Position numbers and translations under genes: made by a program
Shown: one piece after another, positions 806-64,000 of the stretch
Layout of the letters: every line of letters starts with the position of its first letter
Position numbering within the stretch: position 1 is the first letter of the stretch
Notes under the pieces: model-generated
The model's database searches: none
Told to the model about the DNA's origin: nothing
Seen by the model: only the letters and a program-made list of their open reading frames with translations
Origin: Phoronis australis
Taxonomy: Eukaryota; Animalia; Phoronida
Direction of reading: 5' to 3'
Assembly (NCBI GenBank): GCA_002633005.1
Contig: NMRA01000207.1
Location: 179,408 to 243,407, forward strand
DNA: 64,000 nt

Positions 806-1990
806 ATATCCGACCAGTGACGTATAGTCACGGCTGTGGGAAACCAGCAATATAAGCAGAGAATTGATGAATAATAGTAGGAGAGAAATTGGTGAATGTG
901 CAGATGTAGAGATAATCTGACGCACTGCCTTTTTGTAGACAATTAATATGGGCAAAAAACACAAATAAACGGGTCTTAAGAACCAATCTCAGGATAAATA
1001 AGGAAAATAAATAATCAAATGGAAGGTACATATGTAAAGATGGGGAAATGAAAAATATACACAAAGACAAGGGCCAAAAAAACAAAAAAATTAGGCAACA
1101 ATGCTAGCTAACCAACCAACACCATACCACCTGCAAGATAACCAACCAACACCATACCAAGCAATGACCTTGGCTACTGTGTTGACTCACTTACAAACAC
1201 AAAACCGCTTCCCCATATGACCCCATCCCAAAACGGTAGAAAATGCCCAGCATCAAAGGTGGTCTAGGAAAGCAACTACATACTAGAAAAACTAGTGACA
1301 AATACGCCAAATGTTCTGATTGCCCTGGTTCTGTAGTTAGGTCTAGTACTGTGTACTGCTGTAACCAACCAGACCTGCTTCAACACAGTGCCAGACTTGA
1401 CAGGCCACATTCATGGGCTTCTGATGACTGTGTGTAGGACAAACGGGGAAGCTGTCACAGTGATCAATTACAGGGCAACACAAGACAAGGTCAAGGACGA
1501 TTACAATAATATCTGCCATGGAAAAAACGAGTAAAGTAAAATTTCGCTTGTCAGCCACACTGTGTCCTAAATTAGTGAGAGTATACCATACAAATATACT
1601 TTTGATCATTTAACAGTGTATCTGATACGAGTACAAAAGGAAAAAAGTGAAAGATAGAATATTTTTTGTCGTAAGAACAACACGGCTGGCAATAATTGTT
1701 AGTGGTAACATAAGTTGCATCAGCAAAAGCATTGGATTTAACTGAAAATTAAACTGCAAGATAAAGGAATGGGAAGGACCAACAGTTAATGGCAGGTGAG
1801 TCTAATTTTGACGTTTCGTGAATGTCAGCATATTCTTTCACAGAGACTATCGCCAGAACAGATCCCAAAGATAACTTGCAGTCAGTCAAGTGTGCAGACA
1901 GATTACAATCTGAACAGCCAAACTTATTGGCTTACCCAATAGTAAAGGTGCTCTGTTAGCTGGTTATCCTTGTAAGCCGATTGACGAAAA

Positions 1991-2538
1991 TGTTGTAGAT
2001 GTGCTTCCGGTGAATTATATGAGCCTCTGTTAGCTACTTGCTAACAGGCAATTACCTATTAGCTGAATGGTTAGCACGCTTGCCGGTTTTATGGGGGTTG
2101 CTGGTTCGATCCCCGGGTCGGGTGATCTCGGCTATTACTACAAATGGCGTAGTCGGCAAACGGATGATCTACCGATGAAGCACTGCCAACTAGTACCCAC
2201 GGACCTCGGGACGGCACGCGTGGAAGGTTCCAGGAGTCAAGGACCTGTATGAGAGACTACCTTGTGTTCACCTGTGTTGTGGTGGTAAAGGTACCAAGGG
2301 ACGTTGATGACCTGTATGCGAGACATCCTGGTATTCACCTTCCTGGTCGCGTCCCCGTTCCGTAGGGAAGGGGGGAATGTTGTAGATGTGCTTCCGGTGA
2401 ATTATATGAGCCTCTGTTAGCTACTCGCTAATGGGCAATTGCCTATTAGCTGAATGGTTAGCACGCTTGCCGGTTTTATGCCTTTTATGGGGGTTGCTGG
2501 TTCGATCCCCGGGTCGGGTAATCTTGGCTATTACTACA
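1991..2538 (+). mobile_element. TRIM (miniature non-autonomous LTR retrotransposon) with tRNA-like LTRs, Helenus-like
   Basis: Direct repeats 1991-2142 and 2378-2538 both run TGT...ACA and differ by 6 transitions plus a 9-bp duplication. PBS TGGCGTAGTCGGCA at 2145-2158 is complementary to the 3' end of tRNA-Ser(AGA) (...UGCCGACUACGCCA). Polypurine tract AGGGAAGGGGGGAA at 2364-2377 abuts LTR2. The 235-bp interior has no coding capacity. Flanks are AAAA/AAAT (imperfect 4-bp TSD). Confidence 0.9.
2060..2113 (+). promoter_or_regulatory. Pol III type-2 internal promoter (A box and B box) in LTR1; second copy at 2447-2509 in LTR2
   Basis: A box TAGCTGAATGG (2060-2070) with GCT/AGC D-stem and B box GGTTCGATCCC (2103-2113). 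Anticodon and acceptor stems are degenerate, so this is not a functional tRNA. Confidence 0.75.
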
Positions 2539-2743
2539 AAATTGTATGCTAACTGCAGAAGCAGGACAAGTGAATTGAATCAACATATTTGCATGGAACA
2601 CAGTCCTTTCCACATTATTCAGAAGTAAACTGAGGAGACACAATAGCTAGAAATACAACCTTTCAAATGATATTTCTTCAAGAACACAAGGAGCTTCTTT
2701 CTACGTCAAACTCAAAGAAGGCTTCCCTCGAATTGTAGCCGTA

Positions 2744-2876
2744 GGTAGAAGTGGAGTAAACAGGTCCCTCTTGAAAATGGCTGCTAAGAACCAGTTTTCA
2801 TTGAATAATGGTGATGTCCGTGAAACTGGTTCCAGATAAGCATTTTGAAGAGGGGCCCGTTTACTCCACTTTTACC
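2744..2876. repeat. Fold-back palindrome (small MITE-like)
   Basis: GGTAGAAGTGGAGTAAACAGGTCCCTCTTGAAAATG...GAACCAGTTT pairs with AAACTGGTTC...CATTTTGAAGAGGGGCCCGTTTACTCCACTTTTACC. Confidence 0.6.
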
Positions 2877-3654
2877 GAATTGTAGAGTGGATGTGCACAA
2901 ACGAAGACTCGAAGCCGAAGGTCGAGATTGAGCACCTGTGACAAGTACAGTACCGTTATCCATTAATCACTCACCTTTATCCACTACAATGGCCAACAAA
3001 GCTGTTCACCGTAAATGTGCGTATATGAAAACATGCATTTTCCAAACACTAGTGACCTAAAGGCCACTTAAAATGGTTAAAATATAAGACAACCTTGACC
3101 AGACCCACTCGACAAATAGGCTGAAACGCAAATAAACTTTAGTCGTTATCTCGTCTGATTTGTGAGGCTGTAACGTATACATTATTCAAAAGTTCATTTA
3201 CCCCAGAAGCCCTATTAACGTTTAAAAATTTTTAATTTGGATTAAAAGTTGGACAAATGAAGTTTTATAAATTAATTTTAAAACAACACCTCTATGTAAC
3301 ATCGAATGTTTTGTTCAACTGCTCGATTTAGAGCAGGGGAGATAATGTATTATCTAGACCTTCTGGTACTCGCGGTAGAAGTTCGATAACCACAGGCAAT
3401 GAGATAAATATAGCTCATTGACCACAAGTACCAAAACGGTGCTGAGCTTGACTTCGTGACTGAACTCGGTGCATCCAAATTTAGAGATTAAGCACATTAA
3501 GAAACATTTTTTAAAACTGTGTCAGCTAGTGGACGATAAATTGTGAGGAGCACACACATAGTTTTGGTTGCTGTGCCGAAAGATTTTTTTTTTTCAGTTC
3601 ACAAAGAGCCTACATCACTAACTCCACTCGGATCGGAATTGGCACCGCCCTTAA

Positions 3655-4143
3655 GGGGACCTGGAACGAGATAAACAGACTAAATTGCAATATTGAAAGT
3701 GGACCCTCGCCACTGAAACAGAATTCAACTTGTTCACCAGGTATTTTTAATGGTTTCTTCTTAAAGATTTTTAATTTCTGTTGATATCAAAGCATTTTCC
3801 TTTAATTTCGAAAAACGATCTCTCAACTGCTCGCCACTTCGTCGATTTTTGGCCTACAAGGCAAAACACGTCTCCTTAATTAATATGGCAAGACAGAGTA
3901 CCATATTTCTCTTATGGAAAGAGTGACCTTTGACTTCATGCGACTTCAAGGAACTGACTATGAGAGCATGAGAGCATATATCATAAGTGCGAGGGAGATT
4001 AGAAACTTTGTGGTAACCACAGAGATTTTTCTTGGCGCGTATTTCTTTCCTCACAGGAGAAAGTGAATGTACTATGTACAAGACGTTTCGAGATAATACT
4101 TTCGTCAGGATAATTTTGACGAGTTTTCGCGTTCCATGCCTCT
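3655..4143. mobile_element. Non-autonomous DNA transposon with TTAA TSD (Kolobok-like), copy 1
   Basis: TTAA|GGGGACCTGGAAC ... GTTCCATGCCTCT|TTAA. Homologous along its length to 59841-60378. Its right end sits at a TTAA within the LINE remnant (PIFK codons). Confidence 0.7.
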
Positions 4144-5800
4144 TTAAATATCGGTACTATAATGGATTTTGTCCATTCTTTTGGAAACACATTTTTAAAA
4201 AAGTAGTAGTATAGATTGGACAACGAATCGACCAGCCTTTTATAAGCATACTTGTAAAACTCAATGCCATTTTTATCACACCCTGGCGAAGTTCCGTCTT
4301 ACATACTATTGATGGTTTGTATAATTTCATCTTTTGTGATCTCAATCAGCGTCCAGCTCCATATTAACAATGGCGTTACTCGAATTGTTATCATTTTTAC
4401 TGAATTCTCAATAAAAGCATGAAATTCAGTGGCCTTTAAACAGAGACCTGAAATAATTGATCCATTTCTACGGCTTAACATTCGTCGTTACGCATTTCTT
4501 CTTAATGTTAAATGTGTGCCAGATTTTTTCTGTGTTACTCTGCACAAGTTTTTGTAACATTTTCTGTTATACTTTAACCGTTTCACTTTTTTAAGTCTCC
4601 ATAATCTCATCTATCTTGTAGTTCGACTATTGTTTTCTCTCAGTGTTCCAACACTGAATCTAAAACTTTTTAATTTTCGCCAAACGACGGCTCTCATTTT
4701 TCTACATTCAGCGTAAAATTATTTGGGAAAACTAATTGATTACATTCTTTGTTTAATTTGAATTTTACTTTGTCGGATGCACATAATGGCTTCCGTTAAA
4801 CTTTCTACACTTGAATCTATGATCGAGGGTATATGACTGTGTACGTCACCTAGCAACCGATCCACCTCCGGTCTCGTCCAGTTTTCTGCATACCTCAGGC
4901 CCAACCCCTCGTCTCATTTATGAACATTTTCAATTTGTTCGACTCCAGCCCAGTTGTTTTGCTGCGTCTTACACATACCAAAAATCACTGGAAAGTCGAT
5001 TCACAGATTTCACCGATTTCAAAACAGTCCACACAGTACAATAAATCATTGTTTATCTTGACGTAGTCAACAATACTAGATCCATTATAANGTTAAAATA
5101 GTAAAAATGAAACACGTGTGTCGTTACTAAAATATATTAAAATATTCCCCACGTTTCGAGTGATGCGCTCTTTGTCAAGGGTAAGATGCTGACAAAGAAC
5201 GCATCGTTCGAAACGTAGGGAGCATTTTAGTATATTTTAGTATTTTAGTACCGACGATTGTCGTTTTTTACTATTTTTATTATTTTATATTCTTATCCGA
5301 CGGTAACTGCACGGCATTCCAGCATCTATTTGATTTATTCATTTTAAGTGACACATGTTACATTTCCAATGTCTGCATCTTTCCCAAATCTTCCATTCAG
5401 TATTCTTATCTCGTTTCTTTGACAAAACTCTAATAATTCTGCACCAAACTCATTTACCTCACCATAATCTTGTGAGGTCCTACAACATAGCTATCTTCTT
5501 ATTAGCTAACACAATCAAAGAATAGGACTGGATTCATCCATATACTTAATACCATGATCTTCAATAAAGTGTGGCCTGTTACGCGAACGAGCATTAAAAT
5601 CGTCCATTATTAAAAAGTGACAAGCCCCCGTCACTTCCCCCAGAATAACCGTGCACCTCCCGTTTAAGTATTTTTATTGTGTCCAAATTTTTACTCGAAC
5701 TTTTTGGAGACTGAAGTATAACTGAAACTAAAACAGGACGCAAATACATGTAATTGGGGAGCACAATTTTATCCATAAATCGTCAGCAGAACTTGAAGCC
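4144..5800 (-). mobile_element. Decayed LINE (APE endonuclease and pre-RT linker; RTEX-like)
   Basis: Minus-strand fragments SGGSDGGLSLF, ELLEFCQRNEIRILNGRFGKD..GNVTC, GSSIVDYV (APE), EITKDEIIQTINSM and FPKEWTKSIIVPIFK, with many stops and frameshifts. Confidence 0.75.
5095..5277. mobile_element. Inverted pair of Penelope-like pLTR fragments with degenerate minimal hammerhead motifs
   Basis: Arms 5095-5177 and 5190-5277 are inverted copies. Plus strand reads CTGACAA-A-GAAC-GCATC-GTTC-GAAACGTA; minus strand reads ccc-TTGACAA-A-GAG..CTC-GAAACGTG-ggg. The segment is inserted between the GNVTC and GSSIVDY motifs of the LINE APE domain. Confidence 0.6.
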
Positions 5801-6110
5801 CCTAATAATACTTAGAAAATAATAATACACCACCAAAATTACGAAATGCTTGATGGTGTTTATTTCTCACCGACCCAAAACACTGGTAACCTTCAAACTT
5901 ATCTTTACCCATTACCCATGTTTGAACTAAAGCGATGACATACCGCATTTACAAAATCAATAATCTGTATTTTATGCTTTACGAGTCCTTCGATATTCCA
6001 ACAAATACATTTCCATGACGACTTGTCTTGTGGGCCTACAATTGGCCTAATCGCAAGTGCTGCACCGGCTATGTTCGAGACGGACCAGCCATGTCGAACA
6101 CCTGGTGGGC

Positions 6111-6248
6111 GTGCAGTAACGATAGGACGTGCGCTAGGACCTAGCTAAAATCTAGCCAAAGTCACGTGCTCTCATTTAAAGTACACGGCACTATCTCACG
6201 TAATCTCGCGAAGTCTTGCTTTTTAGCGAGGTCCTAGCGTTACTGAAC
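6111..6248. mobile_element. ~120-140 bp MITE family A (TIR GTTCAGTAACGCTAGGACCT), copy 1
   Basis: Homologous copies at 33172-33308 (reverse), 51373-51487, 56026-56158, 56503-56640 and 63661-63796. Ends in AGGTCCTAGCGTTACTGAAC. Confidence 0.8.
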
Positions 6249-6381
6249 GGGAGGCAGATTTTCATGATGCCGAACACCGGCTTCTGTTCGGGTTGATAGG
6301 TTGCGCATTAATCGTGCGACGTTTAACTTTTACTCATATCGTTCTTTTCGGCGTGCACCAACGCTGCTCCCGGCGAGGTGA

Positions 6382-10281: not shown

Positions 10282-10386
10282 ATGGGTTACAAGACAGCAG
10301 TGGAAAGACTTTCTGCAAAATTGAAGATTAAGAATTCCCTCGTACGAGAGATGTTGGCGGAGCTTTTAGGAACCTTTATTCTAATA
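10282..10386 (+). CDS. AQP3/9-like: Aquaglyceroporin exon 1
   Basis: [35 protein letters not shown]|gtaagt. Confidence 0.92.
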
Positions 10387-13300
10387 GTAAGTAGGCCATG
10401 CTGTTTATCATAATTATGTTACGCGAAGGTGACAATTTATTACCCCCATACAAACTTATCTAGATGACATTCTGCATCCTACTGAGTTTTGACACAGTTT
10501 CCGACGTCCATGTGGAGAACATGCGAGCCCGTAAGATGCTTCTGGTTAGGCCGACTGTTGGAACGAACGTTCATGTTGACATCGTAGTCATAACAATGCA
10601 AGGTTAACAAAATGTTTCCACTAACTAAAAATTAGGCAGATGATGTACGTAGGCTATAGTCTAGTGGCACGTTACATGGTCATTAATACACTTTCTCAAA
10701 TGAGATGCTTTTAATTACGCCATAGCTTAATTTGCCTTAGTATTTCCTCATAGGTTCAAACGTCTCCTAAAAATCCCCACGGTTTTTAATTCTGTAGCCT
10801 ATTTTTCACATTACATGTGTCCTAAATACAATGGGCGGCGCACCATAGGGGGCTGGGAGCTATAGCCCCCACTTTTCAGTGTTGTTCGCCCGTGTCTATG
10901 CATTCTCAGTTAACATTAATTCGTTTTAGAAGGGAATTAATTAAGAATATTGATAAATATCTCGAGTGTTGTAGACTTTCCAAAAATATGAAACAGTTGG
11001 TTATCACCGCACCTTTACTAGCAATACAAACACTTACATACCCCTCCACAAGGGAGATAACGCCAAGTTAAGAGTTAAGCCTTATCGACAAGTGTGTGTA
11101 TTAATCCAAAACTATACAAAATTTACTGTACTAGTATTTATTTTCTTAAAATAGAAAACCTGTACGTTTTGATTTCTAACTTCAGAACAGTTTGTCTAAA
11201 GCGTACGTCGGACCTTATCGACAAGTCTGCGTATTTAGTCAAATGTCAACAAAACTGGATCATTTTAACATAAAATCCTAATAGGGTCGTTGAGAACTGT
11301 GCATAACACATAGTATTTCAACGTCTCACGTGACTCCGATAAGCCATTTTTGAGATGTGATGTTCTTGTGTTTTCCTAGGATCCCATATAACCCTAAGTG
11401 TTGCCGACAGAGCGATATGAATTCATACCGTGGCGCGATTAGATATCGACTAAGCTGTAAGAGCAAATGTATCCTCAGATAAGATGATTGTAAACAGTAG
11501 CTCTGTATATCTGGATGAGCTGCACTTTACGTTAGCTTGTCATTAGTTCCTGACAATGTAATGTGTACTCCCAAGTAACTGTTTGTCATGGACTCGGTGA
11601 TACTATTTTTTGGATTGAAGCCAATGTTACTGTAGTTAAGTTCAATATGCAAATACCAATAAAACTCACACGTACGTTCATGTGTGTGTACCATAGGCGG
11701 TGCACCATAGGCTGTGCACCATAAGGGGCTGGGGGTAGGGATATAGCCCCCAACTTATTCCCGTGCTGCGCCGCCCATGTGTACGTGAGCTGATACGTCA
11801 TAGACATCACACTCACGTGGCCTAGTCAGATAAGTAGGCCTACGTATGCATATATTTAAGCAAGCATACTTACAAAGCCTACACACGTGTATGCTTTGCT
11901 ACGTATGAAGATCCATGTCTATCAAGACTTACATATCTACGCTGTCATCCTTACATAGCCTACATATTTACTAACGCACGTGCGAAGAGTATAATTTGGT
12001 AACGGTCCTTCCTTCAAGTATGGAGGTTTTACTTGGCCTGCTTGAGCGCAACAAACTCCAGATAGTAAGCAGTACAATGCGTGAAGTTTTCCACACTGTA
12101 TGTGTACGTATTGTATGTATAAAATCTGTCATACAGGTACACGCACGCGTACGTGCGTACATTCATAGAAATATTGCACAGAACTACGAAATTTATGTAA
12201 AATGTAGATCAATTTGGTTTGAGTGGAACTGATGTTTTTATTTTTTGTGGACGATATGAGGCATCAAACGTGCCACCACGTTCCCACAATATGCGCGTAC
12301 TAACACCGCTCATTACACGTTTGTACGACTCCTCTTACGCATTCTCTGAGTAAAGAATTATGGGAAATATGCAACCTCTTTCCATCTTTCGTCGCCGTGC
12401 ATGATTCCCATAGTTCTTCATTGTAGACCTGCGTGAGAAAGCCGTAGACATATCAGTTGTTGCTTACTGCTTGCATTGCAAGTGATAGATTGGAGATACA
12501 TGTTGGTATTCCGCAACTTTGGGCTCCAAAGTTGTGAAGTAGTTGTCTGCACCACTTACAAGAACAAATAACTTCGAAGCAAATACCCCATCAGAGCATT
12601 TGATAAAAGTTACGCATCTGCTGGAAATCTTTGAAAACATTTGTGGAAATATATTCGGGAAAATCAACTTCAACTTATTCTTTGAATCAAAATTCAAGGT
12701 TGTAATAGTTTACATTTGATGTCCGCATGCAAAATGCGTTGTAAAACGACAAAAATTAACAAAAAATTAAAAACGGTAAAAGAGTTTTTTTTTCTAAAGT
12801 TACTAAAATGACATCGCCTATTTTACTGCGCAAGTATCCACCCCGCGTTGAAGGATAACTATGCTCGTAGTGTTTTTGAATGTTGAGTAAAAACAATTAC
12901 TGCACCTACTATCAGGGTCTACATCACGTGTTTTTATGTTTCTGGGAAAACTCGCCCTCTTCCACCTCTTTATGTATTAGATATCGCACTTAGAAAAGGG
13001 CAATTTGAATTCATTCCGATGCTCCTTTCTCCTTGTTTGTTTTCGTCGCCGCCTTTGGAAATGGGCCACAAAGGAAATCTAGGCTTTGACTATATTGTTG
13101 GACTAAAAAAGTATTAATGCGGTTATTTCATTATTTATAGTCGTAGCTCCAAATTTTGCTCCCTGAAAGGAGATTTACAACAAGAATGTCCTGCTATTTT
13201 ACGATCTCGTCCAAGGCAAGTAGCGTTGCAAAAACCACAATCTACGCGCAGTGATAATATGTCATTAATCATCGTGATTCCATAAACTGTCAAACACACG

Positions 13301-16300
13301 CATAAATAAATAAATGCTCCCAGTCTCTTTTTGCAAAAGGCGTAGCCTGTAGCGTACAGTCAAGGTAAACATTTGGTTCTTACAGACCTTTTGTTTGTTC
13401 ATACACAGAATCAGATATTGCACGCCCAAGTCACGTGGTACGTAGCTGAGGTAACACTTCGCGCGTGCTAACACTTCGCGCGTGCTACTGCGTAGATGAA
13501 CCTTTGAAAGTTAGGCAGCCTATTAAATGTAAAAGCTAGTGATTAGGTGAGATCTGGAAAGACTTCTGTCACGTTCGAGATACAACATAGTTGGCTCAGG
13601 TTGCAAAATTTCGTAATTAAAATTCATACAGTTAGGTTGAATATTGAACGATTTGTTACCCAGGCTCGCGCGACGTCATGGTACAGACTGGTTTTAGCAA
13701 GACTACGTCTCTCCCGCAGCGTGTAAAGACTAATAGTAAAACCGACGGGCGGCGTGCTGGACACAGAAGACACGAGACAAATCGCTGATTGCGCGCTCTG
13801 TGACCAAATTGAGAAGAGGAGTACTATATTTACCGGGAACTTCCGATTATAGGCCCATGGACAGATGCAGATTTTGTTAAACAAACATTACTTGTTATTT
13901 TTTTAAATAAACATGCCGTGTTCTTTATTCTTCCATACTTATTTCGCACTCAGCGAACGCAGTGCTCTAAAATTTCACTTCATACTGTGCGAACAGAACA
14001 ATCCGTCAGACTTTCAAAACACCCAAACAGTTACAGAAAGTACGGTCATGGGCGTACTTTTAGAAAATTGTCCGAAAATACGCCCTTGGGCATTACGTCT
14101 CTTGGTGTTTTGCTTCGTAACTGCACGCCTGAAGACAGGAGATAGTGAAGAAACTACGAGCGATTGTATAATAAGATGTCCAACAAACGGTAAAGTCGTG
14201 CCTTCAACCAAGAGCTGCTCCGAAGTTACCATTCATAAGACAGGGGCGGATCCAGGATTTTGAGTTGGGGGGGACAGGGCAGAGTATTAGCCAGGATTTT
14301 AGCTTTCAGACTTTCACACCCTCGAACTGCCAAATGGAATCTGGGGAAATTTCAGGGGGTGGCATGGCCCCCTTGGCCCCCCTCTAAATACGCCACTGTA
14401 AGAGTAAACATTTTGAGGAAAATTTCGCAAACACCCAAAATCTGCGAGTGCTAATACAGCTCTTAAAAATTATACAAATAATAACGACTTCTAAAAACCA
14501 ACAATATAAGTGTAAAGTAGATTTGAACCGAATGTGACAGTTAAATGTTGTATGTTAACATTTTTAGTATTTCTAATCTCGATTTTGATTAAACATTAAA
14601 AAAATGTTTGACGGTGCTAATCAAGGGACAAGACGCACACGAACATAGAGATATAGTGTTGCCCTAAATATGGATATTTTAAAAAAAAAATCAAAATGAT
14701 TGTTCTCGTGCTACTTGCTAAAAGCTGAACTTGCATGAAGTCTGTAGAGCAAAATTTGCCGATGTACAAAAAGAGCAAAAGACATCCGATGTACGTTGTT
14801 GTACGGCCAGTCTTATCTGAAACCTCTGTACCTCTGTTGCTTACTGGAACTCTTACGAAAACGTCGCTACTGTGCGAACGCCTGACCTTAGCAAACGCGG
14901 CATCAGCTAAGGTAAAAACCGTGCGTACGATGTTTGGTAAAACGAACCCAGACCAGGATGGTAGGCCTACATGGTTGTTCAGTTTTTTTAAAATACACAC
15001 ATTTTGTGACTTGCATTTTATTGTTGTAGGTATTTGGCGACGGTTCTGTGGCACAGAAGGTTTTATTTCCTGGAAATCTTGGTACCAATTTGTCCATCCA
15101 CATAGCTTACGGACTAGCGGTCACGTTTGGCGTCTATGTATCCGGCGGAGTGTCAGGTTGTTTCTTTGATCTCTGAGCATAAATCTCCTTTTTAAAGCTG
15201 ATATATCAAGTTCTTGAGATACACGAAAGCGCATTATTTTCACTGTGTTAGCTTCAACGACTTGTACAACAATTCAAAAATAGCAACGGCCACAAGCTTT
15301 ATATTTTGGTCGTTACTCTTCGCAAAAACAACTTCCCAAAATGTTGATGTGTATTCAATATCACAATTCTATTTTACTTTGCTCTTTGGATTTCATATTC
15401 GTGGAAGAAAACTAATATCAGCTACAAAAACATTTAGTTTCTGTGCTGTAAAACACACAGGTGACTTGACTCAAGGGGTAGGCTATTTTGACGTTAAGAC
15501 AAGCTAATTAACTAATATTATTCTTTCCCAGGCGGGCATATAAATCCCTCGGTCTCTGTTGCCATGGCAGTGATCGGACGTTTCAAGTGGACCAAATTAC
15601 TGTGTTACACCATCGCGCAGTATGTCGGCTGCTTTCTTGGTGCGGCTGCTGTTTATGGAATTTATTACGGTAAACACACTTGTTGTCGCACTCGGTGTTG
15701 AATTGTGTTGATCGTAAGAATACGTTGATTTAAAAGGCACTTGAATGTAGAATTACACCATGAATTCCATATTTTTTATTTAACTTCAGCACGATTTTAA
15801 AATTAAGGAATGGGTTTTAAAATTTGTATTTAAAACGCTGTCTCCAGATAACTTTAGTTTATTCTAATGGGAAGCCAGTGACCACAAAGAACGGCATTAA
15901 CAGTATTTCAACACAACCGATAATATTTGCAGTGCACAGAAATCGCTTGGCAATTATCCTGCTATGCTGCGTTCAAGTACACAGGCGAAGAATTTGATGC
16001 GGTTCCTTTTGAACCCGGGATGCCGATAGTTTTAGTCGGCTACTCGTACTACCGAGTGCCTTTGTTTTAAATATATTCCAATTTACCACGTTAGTGCCGA
16101 ATTAAAGGCCTTATCTCAAGGACCTATTCTGGTTGAAACACTTGAAAATATAAACCAAATTAAATAATGTGTCACATTCTATAATTTTCCTGTTTTCTGT
16201 TATCAAACTTGACAAGCTAATTGTTATCTATTTCCGTGAACTGGGTTCTTTGTAAATGAGTTAGGAACGATTCCGGAATGACGGCCAAGTTGTCCTTGAA

Positions 16301-19300
16301 AACGTATTCACCTTGTTATTTTGTTAGATTGTTTGCGATTCACATTTTGTGTTCTTTTTCTTCATTTAAATTTGGTTTTCTTTTGTCCATATGCTTGCAC
16401 ATGACACCTAGCATTCAATATAATTGTAAACTGAAATCATGCCGGGTTAATACGTCGCACTTGCCGCAGCCAGTAGTGAAGTCTCCCCGGCGACTCATTA
16501 CGACAGTACAGCAAAACGCAATTAAAGTACTAATCACTCTGGTAATAAATTTAATGAAAAATCTTGCAAGCGCATTTTCTTGTTGCCCTACTTATCCATT
16601 TCGTTAGGATGACCCGCAGGTAACGATGGCAATCACGTCCAACAACTAACCGTGAAGTGTTTTTTTCTGGACCCGAAACCTAAAACCAGCCTGTGGCACT
16701 CGTAGTAATTCGTTCTGCTCCGGGCTGCCACCAAAATGTCCTCGTTTTCGAGTGCCTCATTTTGGCTACGACGCGTCGCACCTACTTTGTAAGGAGCCCT
16801 ATGCTGTAGCTTGGTTAGCATAATGGCCAATCCGGCACTGCACAACAGCCATGACTACGTCAGTTGTGACTACGTTGTCATGACTACGTCTACATCAGCC
16901 ACGACTTCGTCAGCTGTGACTACGTAGACATGATTACAACAGCCTGACTTCGTCAGCTGTGACTACGTAGACATGATTACAACAGCCTGACTTCGTCAGC
17001 TGTGACTACGTAGACATGACTACAGCAGCCTGACTTCGTCAGCTGTGACTACGTAGACATGATTACAACAGCCTGACTTCGTCACTGAGCTGTGACTACG
17101 TAGACATGACTACAACAGCCTGACTTCGTCAGCTGTGACTACGTAGACATGACTACAACAGCCTGACTTCGTCAGCTGTGACTACGTAGACATGATTACA
17201 ACAGCCTGACTTTGTCAGCCACGACTACGTCATACACGACTAAATCAACCATCGAAAGAACTTGGTTAAGCATACATTCGTGCTCGTAAATTGACCGCCG
17301 CAAAAACTGTTTAAATTTTGCCCGTCAGGAGGACTGTCATCTTACAACAAATGTAATCTATAATAGGATCTGGCGCAATCCCAAAATATCGCCTTGATCG
17401 AATGTTCAGATTCGCTTTGCAAATGTTCGAGGCGGATGTGGGTTGTCTTCCATACATGTAGGTGGGCTAGTACGGAACTATATGGGTTTTTGTCCTCTCA
17501 GGAAATAATTTTGAGTTCAAGTGTCGTATTCGGTTGATATTTTCTTTTCTTGGGTATCGTCCAGGTTGGGTGTGTTGGCTTGATACTTCCCTTCGCGTTT
17601 AGTGAACGAGAGAAGTGGCGACAGGGAAGGAATGACGTAAGTAGTATTGATTGCGGTGTGGCATTCTGCTCGACAGGTGTCGTTTTGGGTGAACAAATTT
17701 CCTTCCCTGCGCCCCAACTAAAAGAGAACACGTTCCTTTAGACCAAAGGAATTCACCGCATCATGGTGTGCAGTTTTGGTTTCAGATGCCATAGCGAATT
17801 TCGACGGGGGCGTGCGAGCAACTACGGGTCCAAACGCCACAGCAGGGATATTTGCCACATACCCTCAGGACTTTGTGTCAACCACCACTTGTTTCTTTGA
17901 CCAGGTAACTGTTTCACATCACGGAGCCGTGTTTGCTGAAAACTTGCTATAGCAACACTTTACGTTTATTTTAGTGTTAGAACTTGAGCTTCACCCACCA
18001 GGTGTCGTTATGCGTTCTTCTGTAATCATTTTAAATCTAATTCGAAATTTGTAGTCTGAATGGCCGGTCTTATACCTTAAAATGAAATGTAAAACTATGA
18101 AAGCAGGTTCTTTGAAGATGCGCTTTCCAAGAGGGTTTTGAAAAGAAAATAAGTTTCATCAAATAAAAATATCACTAATAGTTTTCCATAAATAACAGCC
18201 AGGTACATTTTCGCCTTTGCGTTTTACATCATAATTAAATTCAACTTAAAAATAGTACATATTGAATTCTGTTTAATATCACGTTGAAAGAGCTCATGTG
18301 GCCCATAGGTATATTTGATGAATATGCAAATCTTAAACCGGCGTGGAAATACGGATCACATATATTTTTACGTCTGGTCTGCACGCCATCTATTGGCCAC
18401 ATCACGTTACCTCATGAACATAAGTCCTGTTCTAGTCCCGGTCCGGGGTCAGAAATCTTTTCGCACTTATGTTCATTAGGTCACGTGATGCGGCCAATAG
18501 GTGGCGTGCAGTCCAGACTTAAAAATGTTTGTGATATATATCTGATGAAATTGATTTGCGTTTTTTCACGAAATTGAAAAAAAAAGTTTCTTCGACGGAT
18601 CAGAATAGATATTGCAGAACCTACCTTTTAGAAATATGACGTTTCGTGACAAGGGCAAAACATATTGTCCGCGAGGTTCTTGGCAAAACATGATACTTGA
18701 AATTTAAAAATCTTCCAAATGCCTTCGAGGAGATCTTTGATTTGCTTCAAAAATTGTATTCTTCAAAAGGTGTTTGGAACTGCTCTTCTTGTCGGCTGTA
18801 TCTTGGCGATCACAGATAAACGAAATATGGAGACGCCAAAAGCCGCCGTACCTTTTGCCGTCGGGGGTCTAGTGGCAACATTGGGAATGTCGTTTGGCTC
18901 CAACTGTGGCTACGCTATCAACCCGGCTAGAGATTTAGGTCCGCGATTGTTCACCTTAGTCGCTGGATGGGGAACCGAGCCGTTCAGGTAGGCAATATAA
19001 ATGCTCAAATCTGTCAAGACTCATTGCCTGGGCTCTAATCTTCGATCTCGAACTCCAAATTGTACTTGACATTTTCAGTCCCACTTAGTGCAAACTCAAG
19101 ATACGTGTTTATTATTCTGTGCCCAAGTACTTTATGGTCTACATGGATGAATGTTTATTCCTAGTCCGCACTTAATGACTACGTCACTAAAGCTTTAAAT
19201 TTATGTTTCGAAATCTCGAGTTTAAACTCGAGATTGGAGCCAGTATTAATATGTCCTCAAGTGTGAACTAGGACCAGAAATTCATCTGCAGAAGCCATAA

Positions 19301-20932
19301 TATACTTGAGCTTGCCATGATGGGTCCATAATAAGTACAACAAAAGTGTCACGAACTATTTTAGAGCGCGCGTTCGGAGATTTGACCCCAGGCATATGTG
19401 CTGCCAAATTACTATTGAACACAGCATGCTCTAGTTGCACTTAGCCGCACGACAGAAATAATCACACCAGGCTGCGCTGTGTGCTAACAACATGCCACAT
19501 TTGATCTTAGTTGACAAGAATGTCACACACGTATTTGATTGACATTAGACATCTTCTTTATTGTGGTTCTTCCCAATAGTTTCAGGAATTATAACTTCTT
19601 CTGGGTACCCATCATCGGACCTCACGTGGGCGCCATCTTAGGAGCTCTCGCCTACTTGGTGCTGGTTGAGCTGCACTGGCCGGATCAAGTCTCATTTGCC
19701 GAACAAGATAATCCTGGCTTCAAGCTTGGTAAGAACTTATTCTTCATCTTTTATTCTCTATGTGGAAATAGCATTTGGTGGTGTTGCAGAGTTACTTGAC
19801 TTCTTTGAACACAGTCATTCGTGGTTGCTGTGCCGAAAAAGATCGGATTCACTACGGACAGTAAAATATCATAGTCATTTATATCGTTTCCGTTATACCA
19901 CTATGTTCATTGTTGTCACCATCCTCGCATTAAACATCAACATTAATATCGCCAACAATACCTTTGTGCGCTTCATCATTGTTGCCATCGTCAACGTCAT
20001 CATCATCATCTTCACCACCGATCGTCACGATCGGTGTTATCTTATAACCATCATCATCATCCGACTCACCGTTGCCATGGTTACCACCAGCGACAACATG
20101 GCCGTCTTCACAGTCACGTTAACGCCACCACCACTTCCACTGGAAACACGCAATCGTTATCATCGTTGTCATCTTGATTATAATTTGATCGCTGACTATC
20201 CCTAGCCATCACCGCCAGTGACGTGTTGTCGATTTCACGGCAGTTGTACGCCTCTCCGAAATCGCGTAGTCGTCGTTTTGCTTATGTCAGTCTGCGGCAA
20301 ACCGTTTTCAAGGCACAAAAATGAAACTGAATTGGCCTTTATTATAATCATTTGCCTTTTCTGCCAGTTTCGTCCTGATTTATATTGAATTAAGTTAAGA
20401 AGACGCATTAGATTTAAAAGCGAACTTAAGTTAAAACTCAACGTTTTGAGATCGTGCTCTTTGTCAAAGGGAGTGCCCAAGACAAGAGTCTAACATGGGC
20501 GGCGCACCATGGGGGGCTGGGGGGGGGTCTATAGCCCCACTTTTTTCAGTGCTCCGGTGTTTTTTCAGTGCTGCGCCGCCAATGTTTAAACATATTTTTA
20601 TCCCTTTTCGTTTGGTAACTCTATAATGATTATCTCCTCTGGTACATATCTTATTGCAGATAAAGGGACACGTGGCAAGAAAGGATATATTCCCTGGTTA
20701 CTGCCGTCGCGTCGACGTCATGGTCGTCATTGCTATGGCTGTAACCTTTCTCGCTTCGCGGCTGCTACAAATATGTGCTTTTTTCTCTTGTTGTCTGCTT
20801 CACGTGTAAATCCGCTTAATATGTATTTCACATGTAGTTCTTGGTGATTTTTCATTCCCTGAAATATTTACAGAATCAAATACTTCACAAGTAGAGCTGG
20901 TGGAGGCTGAAAACAAAGGTGAACGGACCTGA
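10282..20932 (+). CDS. AQP3/9-like: Aquaglyceroporin (MIP family, AQP3/7/9/10 clade), 7 coding exons, 304 aa
   Basis: Exons 10282-10386, 15030-15156, 15532-15669, 17786-17904, 18770-18987, 19580-19728 and 20874-20932 join through GT-AG introns in compatible phases (915 nt). Motifs [27 protein letters not shown] and [13 protein letters not shown]; D after the second NPA-R is diagnostic of glyceroporins. Confidence 0.95.
10831..11779. mobile_element. MITE family C (ATGGGCGGCGCA...TGCGCCGCCCAT) in aquaporin intron 1
   Basis: Matching terminal inverted sequences at 10831 and 11779, with related GC-rich blocks at 10831-10880 and 11693-11779. A compact copy lies at 20494-20584. Confidence 0.55.
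14241..14398. mobile_element. MITE family B copy
   Basis: CAGGGGCGGATCC...TACGCCACTG flanked by TAAGA direct repeat; reverse homolog of 6382-6527. Confidence 0.75.
15030..15156 (+). CDS. AQP3/9-like: Aquaglyceroporin exon 2
   Basis: tag|[42 protein letters not shown](G)|gttgt. Confidence 0.93.
15532..15669 (+). CDS. AQP3/9-like: Aquaglyceroporin exon 3 (NPS box)
   Basis: cag|[46 protein letters not shown]|gtaaac. Confidence 0.94.
16843..17250. repeat. 43-bp higher-order minisatellite in aquaporin intron 3
   Basis: About 7 near-identical units TGACTACGTAGACA-TGATTACAACAGCC-TGACTTCGTCAGCTG, with degenerate 14-15 bp monomers at both edges. Confidence 0.95.
17786..17904 (+). CDS. AQP3/9-like: Aquaglyceroporin exon 4
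   Basis: cag|[40 protein letters not shown]|gtaact. Confidence 0.94.
18355..18535. repeat. Fold-back element in aquaporin intron 4
   Basis: About 70-bp arms: ATCACATATATTTTTACGTCTGG..GCACGCCA.CTATTGGCC.CATCACGT.ACCT.ATGAACATAAGT and its reverse complement at 18466-18535. Confidence 0.75.
18770..18987 (+). CDS. AQP3/9-like: Aquaglyceroporin exon 5 (NPA box 2)
   Basis: aag|[19 protein letters not shown]...[26 protein letters not shown]|gtaggc. Confidence 0.95.
19580..19728 (+). CDS. AQP3/9-like: Aquaglyceroporin exon 6
   Basis: tag|[37 protein letters not shown]...FKL|gtaaga. Confidence 0.92.
19905..20180. repeat. Degenerate (ATC/ACC)n low-complexity tract
   Basis: Triplet-periodic CAT/CAC-rich sequence in intron 6; it accounts for the spurious 179-aa Ile/Thr-rich ORF. 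Confidence 0.7.
20494..20584. mobile_element. MITE family C compact copy
   Basis: CATGGGCGGCGCACCAT...GTGCTGCGCCGCCAATG. Confidence 0.65.
20874..20932 (+). CDS. AQP3/9-like: Aquaglyceroporin probable terminal exon 7
   Basis: Phase-1 acceptor tttacag| followed by [19 protein letters not shown]. Assigned from splice phase and composition only. Confidence 0.65.
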
Positions 20933-21339
20933 AGACCAGACGCTTTGGTTGCATATTGAAAGGATGTTAGTCATCGACTTTACTACATTAATCAAATACG
21001 CCACACAAAGTATTATAAGTGGCATCATTCAGTTTATCATCGAACACTGGCACGGGTAAATCTCTGGCATTTGGCAGATCATCTCGGATGTACGCGAATC
21101 GTGCGTCTGCAGTTGCCTTCCATACTTCCTTTAGACGCCGCTTGTTCGACAAACTGTTTGTGAACTGTAAATTACACACGAGCTGAAGGACCCAATGCTT
21201 GACAATGAGCATAGGTTTTCATTTTAGGATCTGGATCGTCAGGTGTACTTTATTTTTTTCCAAGTACTTCACCTTTTTTCGCAACGTCTCCTTAATGATA
21301 ATGTACAACTGCATGCCATCATTGGGAACTGGGGTTATG

Positions 21340-22157
21340 TGCCGGGTTGCATGAAACAGTCTCAAATAGGGACTCAACTAAGTTTCCTAAATCTTTTGCC
21401 CTATTTACGTCTTTGTTTACACACAGATGTAATCTTTTTCTGTCATTTCTTTGTTATTGTGAGCTCCCCTTTCGCTAATGATATTTTCTAATAAATATAA
21501 CTAAAATCTGAGCCAAAAATTCAATGAAAACAAATAGGGACTTAGTCCTTAAGTTAGGAGCGTTGCATGAAAAGATCCCTAAACATTATCGATAATATTG
21601 AGAATTCAGCTTTGAGTTCACTCTCAAGTTGTATCAAAATCAAAAGTTGACTTACATGTACAGTGTAGTAATGAAACTCAAACAGCATAACATAGATTAA
21701 TTCTTATTGACACAACCAAGCAAAAACGCTGTAGGCCTACCTTGACAGTTTCGGCTACTCACAGCAGCCATCTTCGAAAGATTTTGGACACTAGGTGGCG
21801 ATGTGATGACACTGTTCCAAATTTTAGACAATTTATATCCCCCATCGCCTCTGTTCATAATTGAGTCACTTTTTTCACCCAAATAGACTCTGTAATCCGT
21901 CTAGATCTCAAGTTATTTTCCGTCTCGACAGGACGAGCATCTTTCCAGTTAATTACGTGTCACGGTAACAACGTTTTTGCTTGGTTGTGCCAATAAGAAT
22001 TAATATATGTGTTCTCTACCAACCTTATGAAATTATTTAGACAAGTGTCAAACACCATAAGAAAGGACAATCAGTGTTTTCACAAGTCAAAAAATACGCA
22101 GGAGATTTAGGGAACTTAGTTGAGTCCCTATCTGGGACTGTTTCATGCAACCGGGCA
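21340..22157. mobile_element. MITE with ~60-bp TIRs containing a nested Penelope-like fragment
   Basis: TGCCGGGTTGCATGAAACAGTC.CA.ATAGGGACTCAACTAAGTT.CCTAAATCT at 21340-21399 is inverted at 22098-22157. ATG flanks both ends. Confidence 0.75.
21696..22004 (-). mobile_element. Penelope-like retroelement 3' remnant with hammerhead motif and inverted terminus
   Basis: Minus-strand HVINWKDAR..ESIW and MNRGDGGYKLSKIW (GIY-YIG C-terminus). Hammerhead-like fold at 21741-21780. A 33-bp inverted repeat at 21696-21728 / 21972-22004 brackets it. Confidence 0.75.
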
Positions 22158-24321
22158 ATGGTGTTACCAAGATAAACAGCACGACCACGTGGTGCCATTG
22201 ACCAAAAATAGTGTAATTGGTTCTCATTTTGAAATCTTGAAGGGAGCTCCTTAGATACCAGTAAAGCTTCTGTAATAGCACTTGCTTCACTTGTAATGCA
22301 GGATCATATTTCGCGAAGACTTGCGTGACCTTCGTGAGTGCAATACCGGGCACCTCTACGGAATGGGCTCCAGGGCTTCACTACTGACACTAGACGTGCG
22401 TTTCGTATGCGCGAAAACGTAAGATCACGTAAAAGTTCGCGAGGTTTCGACATTTATTAAAAGACAGTGAATCACGTGATCACAACAGCTTCCTTCTAGA
22501 GATTCTTGCGTCTACAGAACTCAGCTGATGGGACTGTTTCAGGAAAAGAGTCCTATGAATCGAAACTTCCAGAAATTTGATCTTACGCGCCACTTGTAAT
22601 TTTTCACTTTTCGTGAAAAAGACCTCAGACATCATTGGAAGAAAAAGTGAATCCCTGCCAATTTCTGCTGGCATCAGGTGACGCCTGGGAAAAACGAATG
22701 ATTTTGATTGACTCAGACTAATTTCAAATGGCACCAAGTGACGTTTTCTTCTTGGAAATATGGACATTTAACTAAACTAGATAACACATATCTGCGTCAA
22801 TTTTCAGAGCGGAGCAGATTATGTTTATTTTCTTCGTTGTTATGAAGAATTTACCACTCTGACGACAAACATGTGTTCCTCGGAAAATTTGTGCCCATAG
22901 TTATCCACCGTTTCAATTGGAAAATGACACGTGGCAAGTCTCAATGTAGTTCGGACACGAAAGCTATGTTTAAGAAGAATTTGGAAAACTCAAACATGAG
23001 AAACGTGTATATTTGTAAATATAATAAAAACATTGCCCAAGTCGTAAAAAATATTTTTCCTCTGAGATGGTAACAAATTTACACGACTACACCCGGCAAA
23101 AGGCAATTTTAAGTAACTTTAGACATCACTTCCCTGGCACTAGAGGACTTAGACACACTCGACACCAATGTCCAAGACAAGCATTTGCACATACCCCAAC
23201 AAACGGTATGCCGTCACCGTTTTTGGTCTGTCCTCCCTCTCTTTTGATTCAGGGATCCGCTTTACGTTGCCCGTTTGTACGACACAGACGCTCGCAAGCT
23301 TGCACTACTGGCCAAAGATTGTGCGTGGATTTCACTGTTATTTAGTTAAGGAGGAATCCATTAATATTTCAGACAATCGTAGTGAATTCATTCTAGAACA
23401 AGCACAATTCGTTAAGGAAACATCTTTTTAAAAGGTCCACAATCCTATTCAAGACCGCAAAAGTGAAGGAAACTTCGGGGAGGCTGTACAGCTCACCGAA
23501 AACAATTCACGGTACAACCCTGGTCAGGAACGCTTTTAGATTTTAACGGTAGATTACTTGCCACTTGGCGATGTGGCGTATTTGGGTCTTCTAATGCTAG
23601 TACAACTAGGAAAGTGCAGATATGAAAAACCCACATACACACCAATACATTAGATGCGGGCTTTTGTGTAAACTAGTCTTGTTGGACTTTAAAGTGTCCC
23701 AGTACACCAAGCCAGGCTTTGGATATTCCAAGAAATGGGATTTTTTTTCAAATTCGCTGACTAACAGTGCCCGGAAATGTGTTTCTTTCATAGTTAGTTT
23801 GTTTATAGCGGGACGCTTTTCAACTTTCGGAATTTTATGCGTATTTAACTGACAACTAAGGTCAGTGTCTCTTATTTTAGTTAATCCTACCGAATGGATA
23901 AAGTCAACGTAGGGAATAGGCGGTTTCGTATATAACCGCTAATTTTTCTGTTTTATAGTTCTGATCAAGGTCAGTAACCTCAAGGGACCTATCCTACTTA
24001 ACGACGATCCCCAAAACGAGTCTTTCGGTTCTAAAACCGCCTGTGCCTCTTTGACATCACGATTAGGTTCACAACGGAATAGATTTGTGTAGCTTTGAAA
24101 TGTATACACCGTGGATAGCCCATTACATTAGTTGCAGTTTAGGACTTTACATAGAAATTTAGAAAGAATCTGTGATAGTGATATAGGCCTATGTCGAGTG
24201 TGTTACCGAAAACAAGAGAGATTGGAACACATTGATACGATGGTTATGTTACTAAAGAATCAGATCTAGAGTCAATGAAATTATGAAACCCTGTGGCATA
24301 TTTGTCATCACTTGGGAATGA

Positions 24322-24690
24322 CAAAACAGGGACAATTTAAATGAAAATATGGCTCATCCTGATAAAAAGCGGGACATCTACATGCGCGCACCCAGCCTTC
24401 AATATGGGGGGGACTCGTTCGATGATTTAGGTCTATGCCAAAACGCAAGGTTGAAAATGTTCACATAACGTCTCGTCAGCGGCACTTTTTACTTTTAGTA
24501 GAATAAGCATTTCGAGTGCCGCAAAAACATAGAACTTGTCGTTTTCTGTTTATTCGAACGGAAAAACAGGGTAATGTTGCATGGGAAATCAAAATAATAA
24601 ACGAAATGTAAATTTTGTCGTGCGTCAAAAAGTGGGATATTTGATGGGGAGGCTAGATGGTGGGAAATATCAGAAGATGGCACAGTCCGC
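24322..24690 (+). repeat. Degenerate direct repeat, copy 1 (copy 2 at 27760-28160)
   Basis: Collinear blocks AAAAAGCGGG, TCTATGCCAAAACGCAAGG, TCGAACGG.AAAA and AATTTTG.CGTG.GTCAAAAAG..G..A.ATTT.GATGG appear in both copies. Confidence 0.7.
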
Positions 24691-26000
24691 TTAGAGCGGG
24701 GCCATTGGCAACTACACTGCACGCTGTTGTAACGCAAAGTAGTATTGGACTGGGTTCTCTTATAAAAACTTTTCATGTGTTGTATTTTATTTCACGGGTA
24801 TTAGGTAAATTCTTCAGGTAACATTAGTGTTCAGAAATAAAGTCAAAATTAAAATTGGAATCTTGTAACCACTGTGTAAAAGAATTATTACAGAAACAAT
24901 ACAAGACAGTAATTAGGCCTAGATGCACACACTTAGCTACGCAAATAAATGCTCCAGTAGTTTTTCGAAAATTATACAAACACACCATTCACTTATAGTT
25001 GCAGAACAATCAGTTGCAAGGAAAATGTCATTTCCTTCCCTAAAATACGGAGACATGATTATAACCACCATAATGTCTTGCTGAAGAACTCCTACCGGTA
25101 AAATGTTATTTGATAAATCATCGAAAGTGACGCTAAGATTCCCGATGTAACCAGTGCCACAGGTAGGAGCGTATAAAGAATGACCATGCAGCTTGTTGAC
25201 CAGATCTTAGGTTAGTCATATTTCAGTCACTTTTAAATCACATTTTAGGACGGGAAATCTAGGTGTTTCAAGGTCTAACATTAGAACGTAAGGTCAAGCG
25301 CGGGAGTTGCCACTCCATTCGTAGTTATATGCGCAATGGTACTGAAAACTCAAAAAAATCAACGATGTGCAGAGACAATTAACCTTCTTCCCAAATTACT
25401 GAAAAGTCCTTTTACTTTGGTTTCTAAAAATAATTCTTTTTTGAATAGGTGTTTAGGATTTAAACCAATAATCTTGTGCCAAAATGATAAACAACGCAGT
25501 TCTTGTCATTTTAATTGTGCGTACACTTTGGGGCACCCTCTGCATAATTGTTCGAGTAGTACGAGTCCAGTTTTAAAACTGAGAACTAATTTTGTTTGGT
25601 TTACAACTAACACGTCACCATAATCCATGACAACACTGCCGATGGTGATAACTGCAATTTGATTGTTGTATTTTAATGCAGCATTGCCGTTACTGTGTTG
25701 TTGTCTATATGAGGTTTAATTTTCTCGTTTGTGGTTCATATCAGTGTTATCTCATTTGAATGTCCCTTCCTACAGCTAATCGGGACCTAGTACTAGTGGT
25801 AGTAGGCTTAATAATGTTGGTGATAGTGTTAGGGATAGCTGTTGGAGTGAGGCATTATTCAAGTCTGTCTTGTTGGTTAGAATGAGCGAGCTTTGTTAAA
25901 GCCCAAGATGAACAAGCGCATTATTAATGAGTAGGATATTTTATATTAAAAGTCATGAAAAATAGTCTGTAAACTTTAAGCCTCTGGGATTGAATACGTG

Positions 26001-27021
26001 TCAATCTATTGGCGGAGGTCCACTGAAACAGCAAAGCAGACGGCACCCTTTTCTCTTTGGACGTTTGCATCTGAACCTCTTTTTCAGCCTTTGCAAAAAT
26101 CCTTTGCGTTGACTGGTCTCAGATTTTTCAGCCTCACTCTCAGGTTTGGGAACGTTGCATGGTATAACGTCTTCCATCTGGTCCTGTAGTCGATCCTCGT
26201 TAATTGAGAGGTGCCATGCAGGAGCGGTTACACTCCTGAATTGGGGAGGGTATATTTTGACGCCTTCAAATAAGAACGACACATGTTGCTGGCCAGTTAC
26301 ACCCTTGAAGTCAGAAAAACTGAAGCATTCCGGCTGCATCATTGAATTTGTATTGCCAGTGTCACATTTAGCGAGGTCGTGGGTGTATTCTATTCCAGAT
26401 CCACGGCTCCATTCCCTAATACTTTTCTTCTTCACTTTCTTCATTATTTACTTCCATCTTCATCCTCTCATCCTGAATCAGCTCAACTGCCTGCAAAAGT
26501 ACCATTTCTACGAAGACGTCAAGGACAGCCTGCTCGACCGTGGCGTCCACAAACGCTTCTATCTCATCTTTCTCATCGCACCTCTTATCAGAAGCTAAAC
26601 CCGTATCTGACATGCTGTGATGGGTTGTAGACAACACCTCCGACTGGGACATTCGTAATTTCGTAACTCCGGCGAGGTCTTGTGTGATTTCCGCCTCTGG
26701 CTCTTTGGTGCACCGTATGCTTTTCTTGCTTACGGTCTCTTTGTTGTTATGTTCCACGGCCTCCGAAACCACATCTTCAACATACACCTTCTTTATGACG
26801 GTCTCCACAAGAGATTCCACTGCGTCTTTTTCCCCGAGGTTTAGATCAGGGCGGGTTAGACCTTCTCTTGGAGTCGCCGTCTTCTGTGTGGCTTGTGTAG
26901 CTCTAGCTACGCATACTGACAGCAAGTGACAATGAATGCACATGTTTACCAGGGCACCTAGCATAGCCACGTCTGTAGTACTGGTAATATTTTTCAAAAT
27001 CTCATCTCTAAATTCATCCAT
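26001..27021 (-). CDS. Orphan intronless gene split by a +1 frameshift (~339 aa if joined); acidic N-half with AKAP-like helices and a basic, Cys-rich C-terminus
   Basis: ORFs 27021-26416 (201 aa) and 26444-26001 (147 aa) overlap. Removing one A from the run at 26423-26426 gives continuous ...NNEESEEE-SIREWSRG.... Composition looks protein-like. Could be a sequencing error or a pseudogene. Confidence 0.6.
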
Positions 27022-63796: not shown

Positions 63797-64000
63797 TTTA
63801 ACCTTCTTGCTGAGCTTGGCCCCAAGCAATACCAGTTATTTCCGAGCCCAGAAATCAAACACGTGTTTGAATAAGGAACACGTTGAGGCAAATTTTAAAT
63901 ATCTTAGGTGTGAAATCCCAGATATGTAACATTTTAAGTAAAGAATTTTAATCAGTAATCGTTAGAGATTTTTTCAGTGTTTCAGCGGTGATGACTTGAT

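Follow-up and report, generated by a model that had tools for sequence, protein, structure and literature searches.

Helenus is a class of TRIMs with tRNA-like LTRs, a PBS and a polypurine tract (PPT), and its animal families combine a 4-bp TSD with a Gypsy-like PBS (Kojima 2024, PMC10886601). The LTRs of this class carry the tRNA-type promoter motifs box A (TRGCY..YGG) and box B (GGTTC) (PMC10886601). How a helper recognises non-autonomous LTR elements whose LTRs are unrelated to its own is stated to be unknown in the same source. In the autonomous retrotransposon Ty1, the formation of RNA dimers is driven by palindromes at the 5' end, according to excerpts of PMC6844567.

In this study, an element of this kind was analysed in a 64-kb window, namely, the whole stretch of 64,000 nucleotides from a contig of Phoronis australis (NMRA01000207.1). 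An earlier sequence-only reading had proposed a SINE/LTR hybrid, transcribed by Pol III and primed by tRNA-Ser. We consider it probable that the element is a multi-copy, non-coding LTR mini-retrotransposon of a new Helenus family, likely transcribed by Pol III, and that the proteins of an autonomous Gypsy element likely copy it with tRNA-Ser as primer. The Pol III promoter motifs in the LTRs place the element in the known Helenus class, and a self-complementary module upstream of box A may be the part that a specialist does not know.

Materials and methods

The search pattern for paired A and B boxes was built by us from Kojima's motifs. The module was defined as a stretch of 22–24 nt that ends at the same place in box A and has at most two unpaired positions, G-U pairs being allowed. 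It was counted by hand in all non-insect animal LTRs of the PMC10886601 data file; wasp and fungal LTRs were left out of the count. Copies of the element were sought in ten listed public sequencing runs, of which those cited below are named X1, X5, X6 and X8.

Results

Structure of the element

The coordinates of the element and its parts are collected in Table 1. The anatomy described in the sequence-only reading (TG...CA LTRs of two lengths, a 14-nt PBS, a PPT abutting LTR2 and an A and a B box in each LTR) was found again in every part.

Table 1. Positions of the element and its features within the 64-kb window
Feature	Position	Strand	Remarks
Candidate 4-bp TSD, left half	1987..1990	+	AAAA; 3/4 match to right half
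Whole element, non-coding TRIM of Helenus kind	1991..2538	+	548 bp; LTR comparison, self-BLAST, repeat status from public sequencing runs
5' LTR (LTR1)	1991..2142	+	152 bp, TG...CA; loose contig/read ends pile at 1991 and 2142
Upstream hairpin, presumed U3	2023..2049 (LTR2 copy 2410-2436)	+	z -3.49 in LTR1, -1.76 in LTR2; 2/200 and 13/200 shuffles as stable
Module, LTR1	2040..2063	+	24 nt, ends on first 4 nt of box A; 10/12 pairs; putative RNA 5' end
Box A, LTR1	2060..2070	+	tRNA-type Pol III promoter motif
T4 between boxes, LTR1	2087..2090	+	candidate leaky terminator
Box B, LTR1	2103..2113	+	tRNA-type Pol III promoter motif
Interior	2143-2377	+	235 bp
PBS	2145..2158	+	14 nt, complementary to tRNA-Ser 3' end including CCA; starts 2 nt after LTR1
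Two direct repeats in interior	2242-2273 and 2309-2340 (span 2242..2340)	+	32 nt each, 84% alike
Polypurine tract (PPT)	2364..2377	+	run of 14 purines adjoining LTR2
3' LTR (LTR2)	2378..2538	+	161 bp, TG...CA; loose ends pile at 2378
Module, LTR2	2427..2450	+	12/12 pairs, one G-U; found by palindrome search
Box A, LTR2	2447..2457	+	motif match
Two T4 runs, LTR2	2474-2477 and 2483-2486 (span 2474..2486)	+	second run from 9-bp duplication without counterpart in other copies
Box B, LTR2	2499..2509	+	motif match
Candidate 4-bp TSD, right half	2539..2542	+	AAAT; also in an X1 contig without differing letters over 2511-2783

The two LTRs differ by six substitutions, every one a transition (K2P 0.041), and by the 9-bp duplication of LTR2, which is missing at 2474 in the copies of runs X5 and X8. 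The PBS is the sole match at two or fewer mismatches in the window, where 0.09 matches were expected. The longest ATG-started frame within the element has 61 codons, and a 72-codon ORF that overlaps it has no Pfam match. No second copy was returned by self-BLAST within the window. The halves of the candidate TSD differ at one position, and random 4-mers of the window do as well 5.7% of the time, so that their agreement is not above chance; the single mismatch fits the age of the copy.

The two LTRs contain the only pairs of A and B boxes in the window. Dinucleotide shuffling of LTR1 gave such a pair 3 times in 20000, and none of 30 shuffles of the window did. No tRNA gene was called in the LTRs (ARAGORN, 0 genes; no match to tRNA in Rfam at E ≤ 10), and the fold of the tRNA-like part is no more stable than those of its shuffles (z -0.10 and +0.56). 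The expectation that the LTRs could be mis-annotated as two tRNA pseudogenes is thus unsupported with ARAGORN and Rfam, since neither program calls them tRNA genes. A tRNA gene or recent tRNA pseudogene was ruled out by the missing cloverleaf in ARAGORN, Rfam and the fold z. A tRNA-derived SINE (SINE2) was ruled out because the tRNA part sits in the middle of the LTR, inside the TG and CA ends, and both PBS and PPT occur. Rfam gave no 5S match in the LTR, which ruled out the Cassandra/Ajax class, and no ribozyme match at E ≤ 10 (the hammerhead being sought), which ruled out a retrozyme. The tRNA-like part does not correspond to the primer: BLAST of LTR against interior gave no inverted match at E ≤ 1, and only short PBS pairings of 5–6 bp occurred in the fold.

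A self-complementary module upstream of box A

The feature list of the sequence-only reading was incomplete, in that the self-complementary module 5' of box A had been overlooked. None of 2000 shuffles was as stable as the LTR2 module, whether as monomer or as dimer. The 5' arm of the module is overlapped by the upstream hairpin. By hand count, the module is present in 51 of the 76 non-insect animal Helenus LTRs, a count that cannot be read as independent trials because the families are related. It was found in 15 of 18 vertebrate LTRs (two more having it with a one-base bulge), 33 of 51 from bivalves and all 3 from nemerteans, and in 0 of 3 from Lingula and 0 of 1 from a ctenophore. Both Ajax LTRs also carry it, with 12/12 and 11/12 pairs (hand count). 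As background, the rule is passed by 836 (1.3%) of the 63970 window positions and, among the 899 that end like box A, by 15. In most Helenus families that lack the module, the tRNA acceptor stem is still intact, and no module was seen in wasp LTRs, which were inspected by eye and not counted.

The sequence of the module varies while its pairing is kept. Among the published cores, six-base centres that are perfect palindromes occur in at least 14 different forms, and a box A change is matched by the 5' arm in Helenus-1_PiIm and Ajax. A text search of the published cores found five of six, the sixth spanning a line break. The text of PMC10886601, figures aside, contains no word of a palindrome, hairpin, dimer or inverted sequence, and no description of the module or the element was found in a literature search (Repbase entries after 2024 aside). 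That the module is common to 51/76 of the LTRs counted points to homology between the element and Helenus, beyond mere likeness. The module suggests shared ancestry together with a putative signal for RNA dimerisation or end pairing.

The folds were calculated for several predicted RNAs. A duplex of two module copies is predicted to lie below two separate hairpins by 5.0 kcal/mol for LTR1 and 11.2 kcal/mol for LTR2. In the fold of an RNA from 2040 to 2477, the modules of the two ends are paired (P 0.88). The predictions of duplex and end pairing both depend on the start of the RNA and are lost with a start at 2047 or 2053 (P of end pairing 0.03 and 0.00) or an end at 2538 (P 0.07). A hairpin switch, by which the upstream hairpin would free the module only in the 3' LTR, was rejected, as the module is still paired with U3 present (P 0.78–0.99).

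The strongest competitor accepts a Pol III-driven Helenus element and reads the palindrome as a local 5' hairpin (for protection of the RNA end or binding of Gag) or as a quasi-palindrome left by template switching, with no RNA-RNA signal; we rate it as a serious explanation that falls somewhat short of even chances. An RNA that starts at the module folds it as a hairpin (P 0.94–1.00), 25 of the 76 non-insect animal families have spread without a module (hand count), and template switching can perfect palindromes without selection. Against a local hairpin stand the self-complementarity of the four central bases, which would form a free loop there, in the core of this element and in at least 14 different published ones (hand count), as well as the predicted advantage of the two-copy duplex given above. 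The departures from pairing are mostly G-U, as suits a plus-strand RNA, which also speaks against that competitor.

Transcription and termination

Pol III starts about 12–20 nt upstream of box A. In yeast, 98% of tRNA starts are on a purine (excerpts of PMC5095917). The distance from box A and the preference for a purine together place the +1 at or inside the module, whose first base is G2040. The Pol III start would accordingly lie near 2040, some 20 nt 5' of box A, and the module would form the RNA 5' end. A minority of Pol III rounds would pass the T4 of LTR1 and then stop at the T4 of LTR2. The resulting RNA would be about 440 nt long, and about 50 nt would be common to its two ends (R). 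Minus-strand DNA would be primed by tRNA-Ser and plus-strand DNA by the PPT, and insertion of the copy, with a 4-bp duplication, would be the work of a Gypsy integrase; these steps are those of the model for the class. For the module, pairing is predicted either with a second RNA, so that a dimer forms for packaging, or with the module copy at the 3' end, so that the two RNA ends meet for strand transfer.

The sequence-only reading had cautioned that the T4 between the boxes might terminate Pol III. This caveat is probably the wrong way round. Since the LTRs are alike, any terminator within them must be passed once and obeyed once, and identical LTRs need a leaky one. In a human U6 cassette, T4 terminates 75% of polymerases and T5 95% (excerpts of PMC5725217). 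By arithmetic from these human figures, correct RNAs would result from about 19% of initiations with T4, about a fifth, and from about 5% with T5. Terminator efficiency is modulated by context and RNA structure (excerpts of PMC9278858). A leaky terminator, as required by an LTR-borne Pol III unit, is a likelier reading of the T4 between the boxes than a defect. In Helenus-1_CVi and -6_SaGl, too, T4 occurs only between the boxes. The plus strand of the element contains no T4 besides the three runs in Table 1, and no T-run follows box B. An interior without T4 was dropped as a sign of Pol III because 3379 of 5000 shuffles likewise lack it.

One raw RNA run (X8, 18% read) gave 647 reads in both orientations, among which no Pol III RNA with fixed ends was found and neither starts nor ends piled up. 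The reads that cross LTR ends into unlike flanks numbered 23, 36 and 70, the pattern that host transcripts running across copies would leave. A 4-nt insertion in box A was seen in one RNA variant (24 of 186 reads).

These reads, with no fixed start, are also what would be seen if the element were an ordinary Pol II TRIM that holds a fossil tRNA or SINE piece, its boxes inherited and disused, and its RNA made from a Pol II promoter in the LTR or by host read-through. This explanation is improbable, although further points speak for it. The T4 lies 27 nt past the start of box A, and among the 40 of 176 variant rows listed, one falls within the 22 box positions (at a free position of box B) where about two were expected, which is no significant depletion. 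Pol III activity is, moreover, unproven for every Helenus (PMC10886601). On the other side, both boxes match the consensus though the cloverleaf is gone by every measure given above, and from fish to bivalves these boxes and the module have been kept. Ordinary RNA-seq, moreover, captures short Pol III RNA poorly. Transcription by Pol III is still the reading that we prefer.

Copies in public sequencing runs

The sequence is present in 7 of the 10 listed public runs, from four studies. Over 1700–2900, run X1 gave 1754 contigs, with a depth of about 42 on the unique flanks, whereas the depth of the interior was 11,000–29,000 and one LTR bin reached 198,000; this depth is not a copy number, and the contrast between flanks and element is hundreds- to thousands-fold. 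X1 contigs leave the element exactly at 1991 (17 contigs), 2142 (16) and 2378 (34), and their flanks are unlike (agreement 0.42, 0.43 and 0.37). X1 may be the source of the window and is not independent, whereas X5 and X6 belong to other studies. Run X5 holds a 416-nt contig over 2094–2519 without the 9-bp duplication, and run X6, from a second species (organism B), holds pieces that span LTR and PBS and PPT and LTR. Exact termini and different flanks in many contigs of two species indicate a family and not a local duplication.

The sequence-only reading had named the lack of further LTR-PBS-PPT-LTR copies as what would overturn it; the search of the public runs returned many copies with exact ends and unlike flanks, and its claim of a multi-copy family is borne out by contigs of two species. 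A rival explanation sees in the element a tRNA-derived SINE that was duplicated once, locally, and imitates an LTR element. The single copy in the window, the imperfect TSD and the metagenome collection (0 stretches matched in its contigs) might speak for it. It is already refuted by the copies in the runs, with LTR-PBS and PPT-LTR junctions in two species and in separate studies, and the PBS and PPT in register and the presence of neither a poly(A) nor a LINE-like tail stand against it as well.

Over the left flank, a contig of X1 departs from the window by five letters and one gap in 317 bp and contains the insertion; the copy therefore predates the split of two haplotypes. The element is a moderately old copy.

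Two observations were made beside the element in the same runs. The X1 and X8 majority letters before the LTR end in TAG or AAG, and those after it begin with CTAC or GTAA (agreement only 0.37–0.63), hinting at a symmetric target preference. A MITE-like element lies 205 bp downstream at 2744–2876, with 54-nt inverted arms that are 80% complementary; its X1 depth is 1000–4200 vs about 41 on its flanks, and loose ends occur at 2744 and 2876.

Primer tRNA and search for a helper

The complement of the PBS behind a T-loop gave 125 matches in 115 metagenome loci. Among them, 104 lie inside ARAGORN tRNA-Ser genes (65 with anticodon AGA, 28 TGA and 11 CGA), 5 in other or unnamed ARAGORN calls and 16 outside called genes. 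The pattern itself selected this tRNA end, so that the result names the isotype and not its uniqueness. The complementarity between PBS and tRNA-Ser extends over 14 nt including CCA, and a human tRNA-Ser template starts with the same string as the PBS complement (excerpts of PMC3299991). The proposed primer tRNA-Ser(AGA) was therefore upheld as to tRNA-Ser (104/125 matches) and not as to AGA, for AGA, TGA and CGA fit alike.

No LTR-element protein was found in the window by Pfam among 150 of the 158 ORFs of at least 72 codons. Among viral contigs, none of 20 loci with the PBS has an RT motif or an LTR repeat, and a literature search found no description of a Gypsy element with a tRNA-Ser PBS and a TSD.

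Other features of the window

A GIY-YIG match at 42473–42817 (-) and similar decayed frames at 38842–39204 and 40738–41082 are probable remnants of Penelope-like elements. LINE-like remnants were seen by eye near 35620, 36244, 46312 and 47206. A six-exon aquaglyceroporin (MIP) gene lies at 10282–19730 (+), with the best summed match to Lingula (58%), followed by bivalves. An intronless, sulfotransferase-like ORF of 424 codons (PF13469) at 30584–31858 has only 16 relatives, the best in Owenia (33%). These matches, none of them to a close named relative, make a lophotrochozoan host likely, and the host seems to lie outside the species tabulated in PMC10886601. The exon at 57514–57924 has a weak match to a ZIP4 zinc-transporter domain and a His-Asp repeat. 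Self-BLAST also showed tandem arrays at 16842–17250 and 47041–47271, with periods of about 45 nt and about 80 nt. Five copies of a dispersed repeat of about 150 bp, 75–86% alike and in both orientations, are located at 6100–6257, 33164–33307, 51380–51496, 56492–56649 and 63688–63804.

Discussion

A wider proposal, which we put forward tentatively and regard as possible rather than probable, joins most vertebrate, bivalve and nemertean Helenus, both Ajax and this element in one ancient Pol III-driven TRIM. In this TRIM, the tRNA acceptor strand would have been replaced by a module of 22–24 nt at the start of the RNA. The module, covarying across phyla, would be a dimerisation or end-joining signal for packaging and copying by Gypsy proteins, and the T4 of the LTR would be a deliberately leaky terminator. 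If this is true, a single origin overturns the proposed separate origins of fish Helenus, bivalve Helenus and Ajax, and a first cis-acting mechanism is obtained for TRIMp3 elements. Shared by families of the tRNA type and the 5S type, from fish to worms, the short covarying self-complementary stretch at the predicted start is a candidate signal for recognition by the helper. The module is also a character that can be used on the question of one origin or many.

Ty1 resembles the element in the self-complementary sequences PAL1 and PAL2 near the 5' end of an LTR-retrotransposon RNA (excerpts of PMC6844567). Ty1 differs in being autonomous, Pol II-made and of Copia type, and in that the function has been tested in Ty1 and is predicted here, as far as those excerpts go. 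Cassandra, a plant TRIM, is like the model proposed here in having a Pol III promoter and a terminator inside identical LTRs (PMC10886601 and excerpts of PMC7215508). According to the same sources, its RNA runs from within the 5' LTR into the 3' LTR, where it stops, the LTR is read through, and the LTRs are predicted to pair mutually. Cassandra is, in contrast, 5S-derived, a plant element and provided with a tRNA-Met PBS, and Pol III transcription has been shown for it, whereas it is predicted for the present element.

Ajax, the nemertean 5S-type TRIMp3 (PMC10886601), shares the hairpin and the 24-nt module, in both LTRs. It differs by its 5S-derived boxes, a tRNA-Leu PBS and 5-bp TSDs, the element here having no 5S match. 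Both Ajax LTRs carry a tRNA-type box A-like motif with the module upstream, as in nemertean Helenus (PMC10886601 Data S1), suggesting that Ajax arose from a Helenus LTR and not independently.

Helenus (TRIMp3) is the closest of the known systems. The 548 bp of the element lie within the Helenus range of 311–1263 bp, and TG...CA LTRs, a PBS for a tRNA 3' end and a PPT are common to both; the candidate 4-bp TSD, with its one mismatch, may be a further likeness. The LTR is tRNA-like with boxes A and B and without a working cloverleaf in either, and the upstream hairpin and module also occur in bivalve, nemertean and vertebrate families. The likeness to Helenus that the sequence-only reading had pointed to was borne out by a short non-coding LTR pair, PBS, PPT, boxes and dispersed copies. 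Its proposal of a possibly new SINE/LTR hybrid family held as to the new family; the hybrid as a novelty fell, being the published Helenus class. By size and primer, the closest relatives are the tRNA-Ser(TGA)-primed mytilid families Helenus-2_MyGa, -2_MoPh and -2_LimFor (LTR 141–156, interior 226–268). In contrast to published Helenus, none of six short motifs of the element occurs in the PMC10886601 data file, where matches across line breaks could escape, and its PBS type is absent from Fig. S2 of that paper, which covers wasps, vertebrates and bivalves. The lack of a shared motif and of this PBS type makes the element a new Helenus family. This family extends Helenus to another primer type and, probably, to another invertebrate lineage, an extension that is unsurprising and useful for repeat annotation.
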